From the UHGV virus genome UHGV-0117802: a DNA stretch of 11,216 nucleotides; one strand, written 5' to 3'. Under the pieces are notes generated by a model. The model saw only the letters and a list, made by a program, of their open reading frames with translations. It did not search any database and had not been told where the DNA came from. This DNA is from a virus. The translations under genes were made by a program, and so were the position numbers. Below, piece after piece: positions 1 to 11,216 of this stretch; positions within the stretch are counted from its first letter, which is position 1; each line of letters starts with the position of its first letter.

Positions 1-159
1 ATGGGGATTATGCCTAATAATGTTGGAGGGTTTGGGGATGTGGAGAAGGCCAGCCGGGTATTTGTTCGGAATGAACTGATGCCACTTCAGAAGAAGTTAC
101 AAGATCTCAACTATTGGATCAATGAAGAAGCAATAACTTTCGAACACTATAAACTATAA
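1..159 (+). CDS. 3' end of a truncated CDS (52 codons, ...ITFEHYKL*); possibly the portal gene C-terminus by synteny
   Basis: Frame 1 is open from the window edge to TAA at 157-159. It is convergent with the 211..1608 gene. In P2/186 the gene ending next to cos is the portal gene, but 52 residues are not enough to confirm identity; an open frame of this length has a non-trivial chance probability. Confidence 0.3.
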   Translation: MGIMPNNVGGFGDVEKASRVFVRNELMPLQKKLQDLNYWINEEAITFEHYKL

Positions 160-1608: not shown

Positions 1609-1689
1609 TTTCCTTTAATATGTAGCTTGCTAAATTTACCATTTTTAATACTTTTATCAAGATGATGGTATAGATTACTCATCCGCGCG

Positions 1690-1708
1690 CTCGTATCCCC
1701 GCCACGCC
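1690..1708 (-). other. Putative cos (cohesive-end) site
   Basis: Minus strand reads GGCGTGGCGGGGATACGAG. The first 13 nt match the 19-nt GC-rich cohesive end of P2/186 as I recall it (P2 GGCGAGGCGGGGAAAGCAC). Its position between the portal side and the tum/A side is as expected. From memory, not searched. Confidence 0.4.
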
Positions 1709-1730
1709 TGCCCGCTTTATGTAGTGGTTT

Positions 1731-1832
1731 TCATGCAGGTGCATAATCTACGCAAAAGCCCGCCAGTTCTGGCGGGCCTTAGCAAAAACGATCCTCAAAC
1801 GATCATGCAATCTCATGCAGCATAGACATGCA
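1731..1832. repeat. Iterated CATGCA motifs next to the putative cos
   Basis: CATGCA occurs at 1732, 1804, 1814 and 1827. The 8-mer TCATGCAG is repeated at 1731-1738 and 1813-1820. ATGCA-GG-TGCAT inverted repeat at 1733-1744. Confidence 0.5.
1754..1777 (-). terminator. GC-rich hairpin with T-run on the minus strand
   Basis: Stem GCCCGCCA (1758-1765) / TGGCGGGC (1770-1777), loop GTTC. On the minus strand it is followed by TTTT (plus 1754-1757 AAAA). It would insulate the 465-aa cargo gene from leftward read-through. Confidence 0.35.
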
Positions 1833-2050
1833 CAGACGAGTAAAGCGAATCGGACTTTACGCAAGGTGAACTCCTCAGCGGGCATAATCAGTATGTCGGA
1901 AGATCTCTAAAAATGAATAATTCGGTTAACAGGTATGCTTACAAAAGCATATATTTGATTAAAAATCATGTAAGGGGGAGGATCTCAAACTGAATCGCCA
2001 CGGGTTTTACAAACTTCGATAGTCTCTCTAACGTTTCGGCTGAGGTCAAA

Positions 2051-2476
2051 ATGAAAAGCTTTTACGTATTAATTTTAATTCTGGTTGCAAGCTTTGTTAG
2101 CGTCCCAGTTCAGGCGGTAACAGCTAAAAACTATGAGAAAGGAACTAAAGCTCAACAGAAATCAATATCTTACCTTTCATGTGCATTCTATGGCAGTAGC
2201 ACACAATTAGATCCTAGCTACACGGAGCAAGTACCTACAGCCGATATCAAGATATTACAGAAAGCAGCTTACCACGCTTACAACGATGCGCTCTCATACT
2301 TTGGCTATGAGGAACCAGATCACGAACAACGCATAATTGATTATGCTGAATTTGTGGCGTCGCAAGAAGCTGTGTTATGGGATAAGCCGGGAATGAATGG
2401 AAAGCAGGTAACACTAATTGCTCGTTCTCTCTACAATGAGAGTAACTGTAACTTGTTACTGGACTCAATTAAGTAG
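2051..2476 (+). CDS. Small secreted protein of unknown function (141 aa) with N-terminal signal peptide
   Basis: ATG at 2051 with GAGG RBS 5 nt upstream. N-terminus MKSFYVLILILVASFVSVPVQA has a positively charged n-region, hydrophobic core and AxA-type cleavage context. It is on the opposite strand to all neighbouring phage genes. No recognisable enzyme motif. Confidence 0.55.
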   Translation: MKSFYVLILILVASFVSVPVQAVTAKNYEKGTKAQQKSISYLSCAFYGSSTQLDPSYTEQVPTADIKILQKAAYHAYNDALSYFGYEEPDHEQRIIDYAEFVASQEAVLWDKPGMNGKQVTLIARSLYNESNCNLLLDSIK

Positions 2477-2635
2477 GAAAAAGATGGTATTTTGCCCGTA
2501 GTTTCAACCTTAATCTCCAAACCTGTCGCAGAACGGGCGTTCACTCATCAAATAAACGCCACACCTAACGCCTCACTGTACTCGTTGTTCAACCTTGCTG
2601 ACGCCAGAAGCAATTTCAGACGCCAGCAACGTTTC

Positions 2636-2869
2636 TTAATGCAGCCAGCTGTCGTCTTCCCACACCTTCTGCATAATTTTCATCACTTGTTTTCTTTCTT
2701 CGTCCAGTTGCAGTCCGGTCAGTTCCACACCGTTAGAGCTACCTTTGCGGATACGAATTACCGTTTTGGGATACAGGGGGCGCAGATTGCGGTAAAGCTC
2801 GGATTCAAGGGCGTCCAGTGTAGACTGGCTAATCTTCTGCTCTTTATCGATCATTATTTCAATGCGCAT
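2636..2869 (-). CDS. DinI-like protein (77 aa from ATG 2869); probable C-terminal part of a Tum-like antirepressor
   Basis: MRIEIMIDKEQ...ALESELYRNLRPLYP...VMKIMQKVWEDDSW aligns by eye with E. coli DinI (MRIEVTIAK...WESADDW). GAGGTGA RBS 5 nt before ATG 2869. The reading frame is also open upstream to 2941. Confidence 0.6.
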   Translation of the reverse strand: MRIEIMIDKEQKISQSTLDALESELYRNLRPLYPKTVIRIRKGSSNGVELTGLQLDEERKQVMKIMQKVWEDDSWLH

Positions 2870-2879
2870 AAAAGTCACC

Positions 2880-3068
2880 TCAGCTGATGACATCCATTGA
2901 GCGGTTGTATTCGTGGGTTCTGATTTTTGCCATGAGTTCATCTGTCAGTTCAGAAACCCACTGCAGGGCCAGCCCCTTCTCTTCATCACTACACTCACTA
3001 GCCGCTACAAGCTTAAGAAAAAAATCAATGCGCTGGAGCTTCAAAGACTCCAAAAAATAGTCCTGCAT
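2880..3068 (-). CDS. Small SOS-controlled protein (62 aa); probable N-terminal part of a Tum-like antirepressor
   Basis: ATG at 3068 with GGAGG RBS. A LexA box lies 43-58 bp upstream. It overlaps the DinI-like frame over 2883-2941 in a different frame. The position (after gene A, next to cos) is that of 186 tum. Confidence 0.45.
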   Translation of the reverse strand: MQDYFLESLKLQRIDFFLKLVAASECSDEEKGLALQWVSELTDELMAKIRTHEYNRSMDVIS

Positions 3069-3110
3069 CTTTCCTCCTATGACACCAAATCAATACTGTA
3101 TACATAACCA

Positions 3111-3126
3111 CTGTTTATATTTACAG
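3111..3126 (-). promoter_or_regulatory. LexA (SOS) box CTGTTTATATTTACAG upstream of the tum-like operon
   Basis: Exact CTGT-N8-ACAG with an all-A/T spacer. A weaker half-site CTGTATAC lies at 3096-3103. On the minus strand a TATACT -10-like hexamer abuts the box. Confidence 0.55.
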
Positions 3127-3220: not shown

Positions 3221-5593
3221 TTAATACAGGTTCCGCCACTTATCATCTTCCTTCAGACGCTGGTTCCGATAGAAGATACGCAGGCCTGCTCCTGACGGAA
3301 TACTGCCGCCGCGAAGGAGCAAATCGACTTCTTTCTCGCTGCCATCAAATCCCCTGGACTTCAGTTCATAGACGAGCTGCTGTCGCTGATGGTCTGTAAT
3401 TCGCTGTTTGTAGTCTTTACGCCGTTTCGGTTTCACCTGGCGTAACCTTGCAGCCAGTTCCCGGCGCTCTTTTTTGCTCATACTGTGCAGGTAATCGTGC
3501 AACTCCTTGTCATTCATACGGGTAATATCCGTTCTGGAGTCCCCATCAGCTGATTTGTCTTTCCCTTGTTGGTTCAAATTTTCAGCAAGGGGACAGTTAT
3601 TGCCACGAGTCCAAGGGGCGCAAGCGCCCTGGTCGGCTGCCGCCTCCTGAACATCAACGGCCTTACGAACCATTTTCCACTTCACGGCATGAGTGCAGAT
3701 CTTGCCCTCTGCAATAGGTGACCAGATGCCATAAATACGAATGCCGTGATCGCCATAGGCGGTCGGCTCTTCGTTGATTTCATAAGCGGTTCTGATGAGG
3801 TGATATTTGCGGGGAACCAGTACGCCGCCCTGCTTCATGATGTAGGTGGCAAAACAACCAGCATCAGCAGCAGCCAGGATGGCATCAAGGCGCGGGTTAT
3901 CCAGTACCGGCGCACCTGCTTTTTTGTCCCCCTGTTGCCTTGCCGCCTGACCAGCCAGCAATCGCAGTTCACGGTAAGCCTGACGCCCCGGAATGCCAAA
4001 GAAGCGGAATTGCTGAACACGATGCAGAGACGCCCAGGCATTAACGTATTCAGCATTATCACGCAGGGATTTCCCCGTTTCCTTGCTGATCTCGCCAGCC
4101 AGACCACGCCCGTCAATGTTCTTACTGATGTATTTCGCGATGTAGCTTGTTGGCGTACCTTTGCGCGGGTTAATCAACTCAGACTTAAAGCGCGGCCCAG
4201 TGTTATTGCCCAGTTCCTCACGGTCTTCACGGATGGCAAACTTACGCAGTAATGCAGTGATGGCGCGGCGGTCTTTTTTGCGCATAAAACACAACAGGTG
4301 CCAGTGAACTGTACCGTCATGATGCGGCTCAGCCACCCGCACGCCATACCACCGCAATCCGGCTTTGTGCATCGCCTTACGAAATGCAGCAAACATGCCG
4401 ACTAGATAATCACTGCTTTGTCTTACCGTCGCATTTGTCCAAGTTGGGTTGGGCCTGCCATTATTTAGCGTGGAATGGAAACGTGACGGACAGGTGATGG
4501 TGTAGAAAACGGCGCAGTCACCGCGCATTTCCGCGATAAGCTCCAGGCCTTTAACACAGGCCATCATCTCATTGCGGCGATGCGCAGGGTTGCTGCTGCT
4601 GGCGTTTACCACATCCTCCATGTCCAGCGTGTCGCCGTCTTCGTTCACCAGTTCATGAGAACGAAAAAACTCCAGCGACTTACGGCGCTGCTCACGTTTA
4701 TGCATCACGGCTTCATAGCTGACATAGGGAGATGCTTTTTTGCTGACCAGGCAGACAGCACGCAACTGCTCTTCCCGCCATTCGCAACGCATCTTCCATA
4801 ATTTCCGGTACCACCAGTCAGCGCACAACATACGCGCCAGCGAACCCGGAATGAGTTCATAGGGCACGGGTTTACGGCGGTTTCTTTTCCGGCGGAGTTG
4901 CTCAAACGCAGGCGGGATGACATCCAGACGCAGGGTTTCCGCTGCCACCTTTTCCCATGTCTTGCGGATTTCTTCTGGCTTAACGTCATCGGTGACATAC
5001 AAATCGCCACAAGCTGCATCAAGGCACATGCTCATATGCGCAGCTACCAGGGTGGACAGGCGTTTCACCTGATCCTGACTCATTTCAGGCAGGATCAGCA
5101 GGCCGTCCAGCCCTTCATGGCTTGCCATAAAGCGAAAAGAAGTGGATAGCTGACAGTCGCGTACATGCTCCAGCCGTTCCAGACATGGCTTAATCGTCTC
5201 ACGCAAATAGCGGGAATAAGCCTTTGGCCTGCCCAGGCTGCTGAAGTATTCAATACGTTGCATCAGTGGCTTGCTGATATGGGAAGGCTGGGCATTGACG
5301 TCCGCCAGAATGACCATATCTGGATTAAAACGCTGCTGCTCATGCGCCAGCTTTGCCCGACTAATGAGCTTATCCTGCTCCATTTCGCGCTGGACAGGAT
5401 CACGGGATTCATTAAAGAAATAACGCTCCCAGACCTGATCACTCAGTGCCTCGCGGCGCAGCTGTTCCTGCTCGTTATCGGCAGCGTACAGAGCGATCAG
5501 GTTTGAAAGCGCAGAAACTGAAGATTGCTCTTCTGTCTCTACGTAAGGATTGATTGCTTTTTTCTCAGCATTCCAGGAATAGCTGTAGTTCAT
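3221..5593 (-). CDS. A: Replication initiation protein A (P2 gpA / 186 A family rolling-circle HUH endonuclease), about 790 aa
   Basis: HUH motif in [10 protein letters not shown] and the two-tyrosine motif YIAKYISK, typical of P2 A / phiX174 A type Rep proteins. Size and position in the early operon fit. The track start at 5644 is TTG; ATG at 5593 overlaps the upstream stop as TAATG and has a GGAG upstream. Confidence 0.85.
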
Positions 5594-6423
5594 TACGCAA
5601 TCTCCAGTTCGAGCTGTGAAGGCTGCAAACCATTCGACAGCCAATCAGAAACTGAAGGTGGGCGAACAGCTTCAATTGCACCTTTTAAAATTGCGCAACG
5701 GTTTTTCAGAATGACAGCTTTCAGCTCCTTTTCCGTCAGATTGCGCGAATACTCAGCCTCCTGAATAGCCCGCGTCAGCTCAGGATATTTGCTATTAAAT
5801 TTGGGGACATTGCAGGCAAGATTTGTACTGTCGGCAGTCGCCAGTGGGTAATTTCCCAACACACGACCGTCAAGCATGCGCAAACCATGAACAGCTGTTT
5901 TGAAATTGTGTCGGCAATAAATTGCTTCAAAAGCGTCCTGCATACGACGATGCCAGTGCGCAGTTCTGATAGCCGCATATTCACCAGACGATCCAAAGCA
6001 GACACGAGGCCATTCACGACATAGCTCGATAAGCCGATCGATTGACTCGTGCAGATGCCAGACGGGAGTTGCCTTCCCGTAGAACATTTTCGGAACTTCG
6101 TTTATCAGGGCATCATTGTCACGTTCACCTCCGTCCACAACATCAGGAATGACAAAAAAAGCGACCTTAGGATGGTGGTAATAGTTCAGGAGCCATTTAT
6201 AAAAATCACTCCAGTTAATTTTTAGCCCACGCACCCATGCAGAAAATGCGCCGTTATCAATGCCGACGACCTGAGCGTGCTGAATGGACGCCGCAATCTG
6301 ATCTGGTCGTACATAGGAGACGAAAGCGCCAGCTCCGCTCACCGCAATACGATGAACGTCGCCAGCACTTCCCCAGACAGGCGTCCCATGGAAATGATGA
6401 ATTCCGTGGTGCATTTCTTTCAC
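5593..6423 (-). CDS. Unknown 276-aa protein translationally coupled between Dam and gene A; weak TGT/DpdA-like hints only
   Basis: GTG at 6423 overlaps the Dam stop (GTGA) with a GGGGTG RBS 5 nt upstream; ATG at 6414 is an alternative start. The stop overlaps the A start. His-rich N-terminus (HHGIHHFH). IDNGAF and [10 protein letters not shown] loosely resemble the DSGGF and hydrophobic-D motifs of tRNA-guanine transglycosylase-fold enzymes. No zinc-site CxCxxC. Confidence 0.55.
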
Positions 6424-9075: not shown

Positions 9076-9200
9076 GATGCAACATTCCTCGTTTAATGAT
9101 GATTAATCAGGACGAATACGGATCGTTTGTATTTTGTGAACACCATAAACATACGATCGCACAGTGAAATCGTCAAGATAAAAGTTCACTTGGAGTGACC
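9076..9200. promoter_or_regulatory. Lysis-lysogeny switch region between apl and cI (promoters and operators)
   Basis: Candidate leftward promoter on the minus strand: TTGACG (9171-9176) - 17 bp - TATGTT (9148-9153). Direct repeats ATACGGATCG (9116-9125) and ATACGATCG (9151-9159), each containing GATC. Inverted GTGAAC (9136-9141) / GTTCAC (9184-9189). Confidence 0.5.
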
Positions 9201-9770
9201 ATGAATTTGGAGAAAGGCGGACGAGGCGCTATAGAGCGCATGGTAGAAGCTTATGGATTCAAAACTCGACAGGCGTTGTGCGATCATTTAGGAATCTCTA
9301 AAAGTACACTCGCCACACGCTACATGCGTGACTCATTCCCAGCAGAATGGGTAATCCAGTGCGCCCTTGAAACGGGCACCTCGCTTAATTGGCTCACAAC
9401 CGGACATGGTTCAAAGCAAACTTCAGGTAATACAAATACTATGGAAGTTGCTAAATATGTATTATCTGATGGTACCTTGCGTGAAGACGGTTTTTATATT
9501 TTTGATAAGGGATTTCTACCCTCTACGTTTAAAAAACCTTTTGTCATCACAGATAACAATTCTGAATTTATTTGTGATAAAGAATTTGATGATATACGTG
9601 ACGGTAAATGGGTAATAAGTATTGATGGCGAAATAACAATCCGCGATATTACTCGTTTACCCGGTGGAAGAATCTTCGTTGAAGGTGGAAACAGAGCCTT
9701 CGAGTGCAAGATAGAAGATGTTGAAATAATTGGGAAAATTATAAGTTTAACAATTAAGTACGTTAGGTAA
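9201..9770 (+). CDS. cI: CI repressor, phage 186 type (189 aa)
   Basis: N-terminal HTH region RQALCDHLGISKSTLATRYMRDSFPAEWVIQCALETGTSLNWL matches the Phage_CI_repr-type domain. Length is near 186 CI (192 aa). ATG at 9201 with GGAG RBS (the track start at 9195 is GTG). Followed by int on the same strand. Confidence 0.8.
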   Translation: MNLEKGGRGAIERMVEAYGFKTRQALCDHLGISKSTLATRYMRDSFPAEWVIQCALETGTSLNWLTTGHGSKQTSGNTNTMEVAKYVLSDGTLREDGFYIFDKGFLPSTFKKPFVITDNNSEFICDKEFDDIRDGKWVISIDGEITIRDITRLPGGRIFVEGGNRAFECKIEDVEIIGKIISLTIKYVR

Positions 9771-9785
9771 TACCGGGAGGAAACT

Positions 9786-9977
9786 ATGCTTGGTAAGGTA
9801 TTTTTTGTGGTTTTATCATGCTCTTTGTTATTAAACCCACTAACTACCTATGCTAAAAATTATCCTTGTTCTGGGAAAAAGGGAGGTGTCTCTCACTGTA
9901 CCTCCGATGGAAAGTTCGTTTGCAATGATGGAACTATTAGTAAATCAAAAAAAATCTGTACTAAAAACTCGCGATAA
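9786..9977 (+). CDS. Small secreted Cys-rich protein (63 aa) between cI and int
   Basis: Strong GGGAGG RBS 5 nt upstream of ATG. Signal-peptide-like N-terminus [23 protein letters not shown]. Mature part has 5 Cys and is Lys-rich. AT-rich codon usage. Confidence 0.5.
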
Positions 9978-10126
9978 ATTTTGCTTTTATATCTGCGCCT
10001 AATATAACAATGAGCCGCAGGCTAACCGCAAAAGTCACATACTCACATAGCAAAAAATAGCCAACTTCATTATGGCTTCAGTGAGATGTATGGTCGCAGG
10101 ATTTCATACATTGACACTGGTTATAT

Positions 10127-10142
10127 ATACAGTAAAAATGCT
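10127..10142 (+). promoter_or_regulatory. LexA-box-like palindrome CTGGTTATATATACAG upstream of int
   Basis: CTGG-N8-ACAG with an all-A/T spacer, two mismatches to the 16-bp LexA consensus. A TTGACA hexamer sits immediately upstream at 10121-10126. Lies about 20 bp before the int RBS. Confidence 0.3.
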
Positions 10143-10163
10143 CTCTATTGGAGGGCATTTTTT

Positions 10164-11216
10164 ATGGCAGTACGAAAACTCACCACAGGAAAATGGCTTT
10201 GCGAATGTTACCCCGCCGGACGTAGTGGGCGTCGTGTGCGTAAACAATTCGCCACCAAAGGCGAAGCTCTGGCTTTTGAGCGCCATACGATGGAAGAAAC
10301 CGAAGCAAAGCCCTGGCTGGGAGAATCAGTGGATCGTCGAACACTGAAAGACGTGGTTGAGCTATGGTTCAAACTACATGGTAAATCTCTAACCGCTGGG
10401 CAGCATGTCTATGATAAATTGCTGTTGATGGTTGACGCTCTGGGCAATCCCCTTGCAACCGATCTCACCTCTAAAATGTTTGCCCACTATCGAGATAAAC
10501 GCCTGACAGGTGAGATCTACTTCAGCGAGAAATGGAAGAAAGGAGCAAGCCCGGTCACCATTAACCTGGAGCAAAGCTATCTAAGTAGTGTTTTTAGCGA
10601 ACTATCCCGCCTGGGCGAATGGTCGTATCCAAACCCACTGGAGAACATGCGAAAATTCACCATCGCAGAAAAAGAGATGGCATGGCTTACCCATGAGCAG
10701 ATTGTTGAACTGCTGGCTGATTGCAAACGTCAGGACCCAATTCTGGCACTGGTAGTCAAGATATGCTTAAGCACAGGCGCACGCTGGCGAGAAGCAATAA
10801 ACCTTACCCGATCACAGGTGACTAAATACCGAATTACCTTTGTAAGAACGAAGGGGAAGAAAAACAGAAGCATCCCTATCAGTAAAGAGCTTTATGAAGA
10901 GATCATGGCGCTTGATGGGTTTAATTTCTTCACAGACTGCTATTTTCAATTTTTATCCGTGATGGAAAAAACGTCAATCGTGCTCCCTCGCGGTCAACTG
11001 ACACACGTTCTGCGCCATACGTTTGCGGCGCATTTCATGATGTCGGGTGGAAATATCCTTGCTTTGCAAAAAATCCTCGGACATCACGATATAAAAATGA
11101 CTATGCGTTACGCTCATCTGGCACCGGATCATCTGGAAACGGCGCTCCGTTTCAATCCTCTGGCAACGCTGCCAAGTGGCGACAAAGTGGCGGCAGCGGT
11201 TGGCATTACCCCGTAA
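10164..11216 (+). CDS. int: Tyrosine integrase, P2/186 family (350 aa)
   Basis: MAVRKLTTGKW..., LSTGARWREA, TFVRTKGKKNR, HVLRHTFAAHFMMSGGNILALQKILGH and MRYAHLAPDHLETA give the R...HxxR...Y catalytic layout and are near-collinear with P2 Int. ATG at 10164 with GGAGGG RBS. The gene ends at the window edge. Confidence 0.9.
   Translation: MAVRKLTTGKWLCECYPAGRSGRRVRKQFATKGEALAFERHTMEETEAKPWLGESVDRRTLKDVVELWFKLHGKSLTAGQHVYDKLLLMVDALGNPLATDLTSKMFAHYRDKRLTGEIYFSEKWKKGASPVTINLEQSYLSSVFSELSRLGEWSYPNPLENMRKFTIAEKEMAWLTHEQIVELLADCKRQDPILALVVKICLSTGARWREAINLTRSQVTKYRITFVRTKGKKNRSIPISKELYEEIMALDGFNFFTDCYFQFLSVMEKTSIVLPRGQLTHVLRHTFAAHFMMSGGNILALQKILGHHDIKMTMRYAHLAPDHLETALRFNPLATLPSGDKVAAAVGITP

Follow-up and report, generated by a model that had tools for sequence, protein, structure and literature searches.

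The window, i.e. the whole stretch of 11,216 nucleotides analysed here (virus genome UHGV-0117802), belongs to a 186/P2-like prophage, of which it forms the right arm, as judged from Pfam matches and from how an identical locus (L001) is annotated in RefSeq. Its features are compiled in Table 1. The order of LexA box, orf62 and DinI-like gene mirrors the p95/LexA/tum layout annotated in phage 186. As the alignment with the phage 186 record, at its right end, extends as far as window position 1709, the cohesive end can be placed directly beside it, and a 141-aa ORF therefore lies between cos and the DinI-like, tum-type SOS operon, the location given in the initial annotation. The ORF is present as annotated, its ATG being the sole start after the preceding stop codon, and it is convergent with the DinI-like gene. 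It had also been described as transcribed against every neighbouring phage gene. This holds for the AlbA_2 gene, the DinI-like gene, orf62 and gene A, all on the minus strand, but not for the portal gene end, which is on the plus strand.

Table 1. Features of the window, in order of position where coordinates are given.
Feature	Position	Strand	Basis and remarks
Portal gene, 3' end	1-159	+	Pfam/RefSeq annotation of the arm; beyond cos
Schlafen AlbA_2 + HATPase_c_4 protein, 465 aa	211-1608	-	Pfam; beyond cos
cos, 19-nt cohesive end	1690-1708		Reverse complement GGCGTGGCGGGGATACGAG; phage 186 right-end alignment
Intrinsic-terminator-like hairpin	1754-1777	-	GCCCGCC, 6-nt loop, GGCGGGC, TTTT; sequence reading, putative function
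Accessory cassette, 731 nt	1834-2564		GC 40.9%; empty site in vB_EcoM-813R9
Sigma-70 promoter-like site	1926-1955	+	TTAACA-18 nt-TATATT; consensus scan 10/12; ~95 nt 5' of ATG
Decayed 3' end of 215-aa membrane-protein gene	1945-2028	+	tblastn; two in-frame stops
Shine-Dalgarno GAGG	2042-2045	+	5 nt before ATG; kept in all P2-type copies
141-aa preprotein gene	2051-2476	+	RefSeq WP_000834899.1; UniProt A0A0K5BM55; phrog_7437
Sec signal peptide, codons 1-22	2051-2116	+	Hydropathy and -3/-1 rule; predicted SPase I cleavage after VQA
Mature domain, 119 aa, predicted five-helix bundle	2117-2473	+	AlphaFold2, pLDDT 95.1, pTM 0.88
DinI-like (tum-type) gene	2636-2869	-	Pfam DinI, E = 1e-22; RefSeq annotation in L001
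orf62 (62-aa ORF)	2880-3068	-	ORF list/RefSeq annotation
LexA box CTGTTTATATTTACAG	3111-3126		Perfect; 5' of orf62 and DinI-like gene
Replication endonuclease gene A	3221-5644	-	Pfam/RefSeq annotation
Early genes CII, Fil, DUF5347, TraR/DksA, Dam		-	Pfam/RefSeq annotation
CI repressor	9195-9770	+	Pfam/RefSeq annotation
Integrase	10086-11216	+	Pfam/RefSeq annotation

Several other parts of the window are variable or possess candidate accessory genes. The AlbA_2 gene is separate hotspot cargo outside the 731-nt unit. Its product has partial PADLOC matches to pAgo-associated models and corresponds to system 163 (11 occurrences) of Table S5B in PMC9122126. The DinI-like gene is exactly absent in Klebsiella-type relatives (window 2637-2891 gone), which retain orf62 and the 141-aa gene. 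A 276-aa ORF (5593-6423, minus strand) without match in the Pfam scan is located between gene A and the Dam methylase gene; in related prophages its site contains nothing (L001) or a PAPS-reductase-like gene (L010), and it looks like a further variable slot. Between CI repressor and integrase, a 63-aa ORF (9786-9977, plus strand), likewise without Pfam match, encodes a candidate exported protein with a signal-peptide-like N-terminus and a cysteine-rich mature part, possibly another moron.

The ORF at 2051-2476 is a real gene under purifying selection. The phrog_7437 HMM matches it over the full length (E = 4.3e-99, residues 1-141 on profile positions 1-141), and copies of at least 99% identity, all chromosomal, are present in 101 of 5,426 complete E. 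coli genomes. In comparison with five homologues of 77-90% protein identity, dN/dS amounts to 0.13-0.27 in the plus frame. All P2-type loci retain an intact ORF, ribosome binding site and signal peptide, which agrees with the good ribosome binding site reported before and answers the question of conservation raised with it. The ORF has a GC content of 40.4% and a GC3 of 38.7%, against 45.7% GC in the window and 52.6% GC (GC3 56.6%) in gene A, and is thus more AT-rich than the backbone, as had been noted.

The surrounding cassette is an insertion between SOS operon and cos, because the corresponding site of phage vB_EcoM-813R9 (L048) is empty: window 1684-1833 and 2565-3100 have collinear counterparts in this phage, separated there by only 7 nt. 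Empty site, foreign composition and recurrence in the moron slots of unrelated prophages support the earlier proposal of a moron, here encoding a protein with predicted export. Expression in the lysogen would start from the promoter-like site within the cassette. Such sites are no commoner in this region than in shuffled sequence, and Klebsiella-type copies keep the hexamers only in part. The search 3' of the 141-aa ORF revealed neither a terminator nor a stable hairpin (fold z-score 0.16 for 2470-2640), and the region yielded nothing in Rfam and tRNA scans. The terminator-like hairpin listed in Table 1 sits outside the cassette, on its cos side, in a block conserved among P2-like phages; given this position, transcripts of the SOS operon may read antisense through the 141-aa gene. 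The terminator t95b hairpin of phage 186 (GCGGGG...CCCCGC; L054 1937-1964) is without its second arm in window 2566-2605 (AACGAGTACAGTG), as compared with vB_EcoM-813R9, and with this arm lost the antisense transcripts may extend as far as the cos-side hairpin.

The N-terminus of the 141-aa protein consists of M-K, a 15-residue hydrophobic core from F4 to V18 (FYVLILILVASFVSV, Kyte-Doolittle mean 2.9) and P19-V-Q-A22, followed by V. Read by rule (hydropathy and the -3/-1 rule), it satisfies the demands of signal peptidase I, with K2 as positive n-region, small residues at -3 and -1 and a proline at -4. This three-part pattern is kept in 15 of 15 aligned family members despite their divergence in sequence (family identity 24-45%), so that the clear signal peptide of the initial annotation stands. 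AlphaFold pLDDT is below 50 for residues 5-19. A lipobox ([LVI][ASTVI][GAS]C) was not found at the end of the signal peptide, the first cysteine being residue 44; an LSAC-like motif is restricted to a truncated Enterobacter variant (P0005). Sec export and cleavage after A22 are strongly indicated by these features, and the product would very probably reach the periplasm as a soluble, acidic, helical protein.

The mature domain has a computed mass of 13.4 kDa and a pI of 5.1. Modelled with the 15-sequence family alignment, it folds confidently on its own in AlphaFold2. Residues C44, W110, Y128, N132 and C133 are invariant in the family alignment, and IIDYAEFVASQEAVLWDKPGMN is its most conserved stretch. 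In the model C44 is located in helix 1 and C133 at the junction of helices 4 and 5; the two probably form a disulfide. That the protein has no recognisable motif, as first stated, is in line with uninformative profile searches. Pfam, NCBIfam and PADLOC scans with the 141-aa protein and 15 family members yielded nothing meaningful, the defence HMMs of PADLOC-DB 2.0 contain no family matching the 141-aa protein at E <=1, the PDB profile search gave no matches at E <=10, and Foldseek against BFVD returned nothing at E <=0.001. NCBIfam matches to LolA and PepQ (E 0.08-0.23) are noise and account for the stray database name 'outer membrane lipoprotein-sorting protein'. Homology to T4 Spackle, best known among periplasmic exclusion proteins, was considered and rejected, as hhalign gives a probability of 5% and aligns the signal peptide only, with the Spackle query verified against PDB 6x6o. 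Tai4-type immunity proteins do not rise above background in the fold comparison. Family and fold are without any characterised relative.

Searched exhaustively with HMMER, 1.84 billion cluster representatives contain only 14 clusters of the family, with proteins of 94-168 aa. All named sources belong to Enterobacterales, namely Escherichia, Klebsiella, Hafnia, Enterobacter, Siccibacter, Rahnella, Scandinavium and Salmonella. Relatives are absent from 185,579 species-representative GTDB genomes according to two motif scans, and tblastn of the 141-aa protein against 50,697 INPHARED phage records gave no match. The 141-aa gene itself was found only in prophages and IMG/VR contigs, with 35 loci in IMG/VR. 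In all loci examined, family genes sit in variable slots of prophages or integrative elements, and they have moved between prophage types. P2-like phages from E. coli and Klebsiella have the gene between cos and gene A. A Hafnia P2-like phage carries it between the tail genes S and V, a lambdoid prophage at its end, behind the tail-fibre genes, and another prophage in the early region. Four loci have it directly 3' of the integrase or within ~4.6 kb of it, and in two elements it belongs to islands with ParA/ParG-type partition genes.

The interval between gpA and gpQ (A-to-Q) of P2 is a validated hotspot of anti-phage genes (Rousset et al. 2022, PMC9122126), in which partition systems, cdt toxins and other non-defence cargo are found as well. 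Table S5A of the same study lists WP_000834899 as 'hypothetical' beside HIRAN, DUF262/DUF1524 and AlbA_2 cargoes, the exact arrangement of the window included. Among 35 loci with the gene at the P2 position, the 1.4 kb across cos fall into 23 unrelated classes. From this number of classes and the varied partners in Table S5A it follows that the 141-aa gene is independent of the adjacent defence cargo. The protein sequence was not found in the accessible part of Table S5B (PMC9122126) nor in the supplements of a 2026 P2/P4 preprint, and literature searches by accession and PHROG retrieved no papers on the protein.

Small exported proteins are also present among the neighbours of the gene in several family loci. 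Two elements contain tight, overlapping runs of three to four small genes for signal-peptide proteins, a family member among them (L047 2577-4229, L050 4540-5917). The 157-aa protein of L047 and the 165-aa protein of L050 are homologous (32% identity), and both end in a Y..xNC-like motif resembling the C-terminus of the family. These neighbours and the family may form a wider superfamily of cysteine-stapled periplasmic proteins. Paralogy was rejected: the C-terminal NC motif is common to them, but hhalign support is weak (18 columns, 17% probability between the family and a neighbouring exported protein). Exported proteins of ~235 aa whose glycine-rich C-termini end in GGGFHY or GGGFHM (L007 4900-5628, L050 2225-2920) are common to two islands at the same eco/yejM chromosomal site. 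In the Hafnia locus, the 141-aa homologue is followed by a gene (L002 6624-7640) whose 338-aa product has a weak NucS_C (PD-(D/E)xK-like) match, a possible nuclease cargo of the S-V slot.

In the explanation that we prefer, the 731-nt cassette is a horizontally mobile accessory unit, a moron between the SOS-controlled DinI-like operon and cos, and the signal-peptide protein is the product of its only intact gene. The preprotein would be a Sec substrate that signal peptidase I cleaves behind VQA22, releasing the acidic five-helix protein, probably with a C44-C133 disulfide, into the periplasm. Having no catalytic motif, the mature protein would most likely be a stand-alone binding protein, and its most likely role would be protection of the lysogen at the level of the envelope. 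The target would be a periplasm-exposed part of the genome-delivery machinery of an incoming phage, or a host factor needed by this machinery, and the outcome superinfection exclusion. We rank envelope-level protection first on account of the small size of the protein, its lack of an enzymatic motif and its carriage by temperate elements in slots where exclusion or defence genes are frequent, the phage 186 slot included. Two positional hints point to exclusion, i.e. the anti-phage hotspot and the occurrence of orf97 in the same slot of phage 186. The points on the other side are the missing homology to exclusion proteins, with neither a PADLOC match nor a relation to T4 Spackle, and the non-defence cargo of the same hotspot. 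The weak promoter call and the lack of a terminator after the ORF likewise count against the explanation. Selection is purifying, not diversifying, and a conserved target, possibly of the host, therefore fits better than an arms race with phage proteins. An exclusion function is plausible; the account as a whole, from export to superinfection exclusion, is advanced tentatively and falls somewhat short of an even chance. Rather doubtful is the more far-reaching reading that the protein founds a new single-gene, periplasm-acting family of superinfection exclusion, moved among variable slots by temperate phages of Enterobacterales and blocking the genome delivery of other phages.

The same properties could belong to a periplasmic immunity or inhibitor protein, an orphan immunity gene directed against enzymes that are delivered from outside and attack the cell wall or membrane, e.g. 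amidase or muramidase effectors of type VI systems, bacteriocins or the lysozyme of the host. Predicted to be small, helical, periplasmic and cysteine-stapled, the protein resembles those of Tai4/Rap type, its relatives occur in the runs of small exported proteins described above, some with the C-terminal Y..xNC and homologous between islands, and purifying selection suits a conserved enzyme as target. Yet no family member has a Pfam match at E <=1 to Tai4, LprI, Ivy, MliC/PliC or other immunity and inhibitor families, an adjacent effector gene is present in none of the loci examined, and the hhalign comparison with the exported neighbour covers few columns, which leaves this alternative unlikely. 

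A lysogenic-conversion factor outside defence, acting on host physiology or fitness, e.g. in envelope stress, sensor-kinase signalling or colonisation, would agree with sites like those of classical conversion genes (the end of a lambdoid prophage, the vicinity of an integrase), with the virulence and maintenance cargo also housed in the hotspot, and with the conserved host target suggested by sequence conservation. The protein shows, however, no similarity to known periplasmic chaperones, stress proteins or virulence factors, and the rarity of the family, absent from the species-representative genomes, argues against a general physiological role; we regard such a factor as improbable to a similar degree.

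Upstream of the 141-aa gene the cassette contains the remains of another gene. Window 1944-2483 has 79% DNA identity with the Hafnia alvei P2-like prophage (L002), the similarity beginning 107 nt 5' of the ATG. Residues 190-215 of a 215-aa Hafnia protein match the 28 codons listed in Table 1 with 54% identity, interrupted by stop codons (tblastn). The intact Hafnia protein possesses two N-terminal transmembrane helices, and its gene precedes the 141-aa homologue. The L047 prophage shows the same order, a 29%-identical membrane-protein homologue preceding a 34%-identical family member. From the upstream remnant and the Hafnia pair it follows that the E. coli cassette descends from a two-gene arrangement that has lost its first gene. 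An obligatory two-gene module was rejected: the partner family is very rare, also occurs without the 141-aa family (L051), and is missing beside most family members.

The 141-aa gene might accordingly be regarded as a functionless leftover, the surviving half of a two-gene module that hitch-hikes in E. coli P2-like prophages. The decayed partner end just upstream and the adjacent pairs in Hafnia and, at 29-34% identity, in L047 are compatible with such an origin, and selection within E. coli is not measurable because the E. coli copies are nearly identical. Against it stands the comparison of copies that share the truncation, the E. coli-type window and the Klebsiella-type L009 and L040. They differ with a dS of 0.23-0.30 and a dN/dS of 0.14-0.19, by which the lone gene has been kept under purifying selection after the truncation. 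Moreover, the partner is absent beside most family members and exists without the family elsewhere, and reading frame, ribosome binding site and signal peptide remain intact in all P2-type loci; a mere leftover is thus very unlikely. The chance that 2051-2476 is a fortuitous reading frame, or that an antisense 73-aa ORF (2247-2468, minus strand), which exists and has no other support, is the true gene is negligible, since the dN/dS of 0.13-0.27 in the 141-aa frame, with synonymous changes per site far above replacement changes, rules out the antisense ORF, and the full-length PHROG match, the 14 diverged clusters keeping length and architecture and the confident AlphaFold model oppose a chance frame.

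The gpA-gpQ interval has been mined intensively for anti-phage systems, and the 141-aa protein was passed over as 'hypothetical'. If it does exclude phages or neutralise periplasm-acting toxins, the hotspot, known for cytoplasmic systems, would gain a single-protein mechanism at the level of the envelope, and there would be an explanation why the gene is retained unchanged in ~2% of complete E. coli genomes despite the turnover of the neighbouring cargo. If it does neither, the gene is one more prophage ORFan.

Among known systems, orf97 of phage 186 occupies the same slot, which follows the tum/DinI operon under LexA control and directly precedes cos, and is an accessory gene as well; the phage 186 record annotates it with 'expression from plasmid blocks 186 infection'. 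It encodes 243 aa on the early strand and is co-transcribed with tum, whereas the 141-aa gene lies on the opposite strand and encodes a signal-peptide protein. No similarity between the two was detected, as the 50,697 phage records without tblastn match to the 141-aa protein include phage 186. P2 tin/old and the other gpA-gpQ cargo (PMC9122126) share the hypervariable, cos-adjacent interval, in which cargo is swapped among similar prophages. The validated cargo of this interval (PMC9122126) is cytoplasmic and mostly directed at nucleic acids, in contrast to the small, predicted periplasmic 141-aa protein without PADLOC match, and the 141-aa gene remains constant on the A side of cos while the cargo on the Q side varies. 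The lambda morons bor and lom are likewise self-contained envelope-protein genes of foreign composition between conserved phage genes, present in some relatives only. Bor is a lipoprotein and Lom an outer-membrane barrel, whereas the 141-aa protein is soluble and helical in the model, has no lipobox, and its gene has a putative promoter and no terminator found after it.

Spackle (Sp) of T4 is a periplasmic superinfection-exclusion protein that inhibits the tail lysozyme gp5. As an analogy only, it is comparable in being phage-encoded, with a signal peptide, small, mainly helical, periplasmic and furnished with cysteines. The immunity proteins of type VI amidases of Tai4/Rap type are small, all-helical, periplasmic, cysteine-stapled and found in Enterobacterales; their likeness to the 141-aa protein lies in size, the all-helical architecture, the periplasmic location and the occurrence in Enterobacterales. 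The database entries phrog_7437, WP_000834899.1 and A0A0K5BM55 represent the same protein and are labelled 'hypothetical' or 'unknown function'. The 141-aa protein is therefore already catalogued as hypothetical, and its kind is familiar, an exported-protein moron in a known hotspot.
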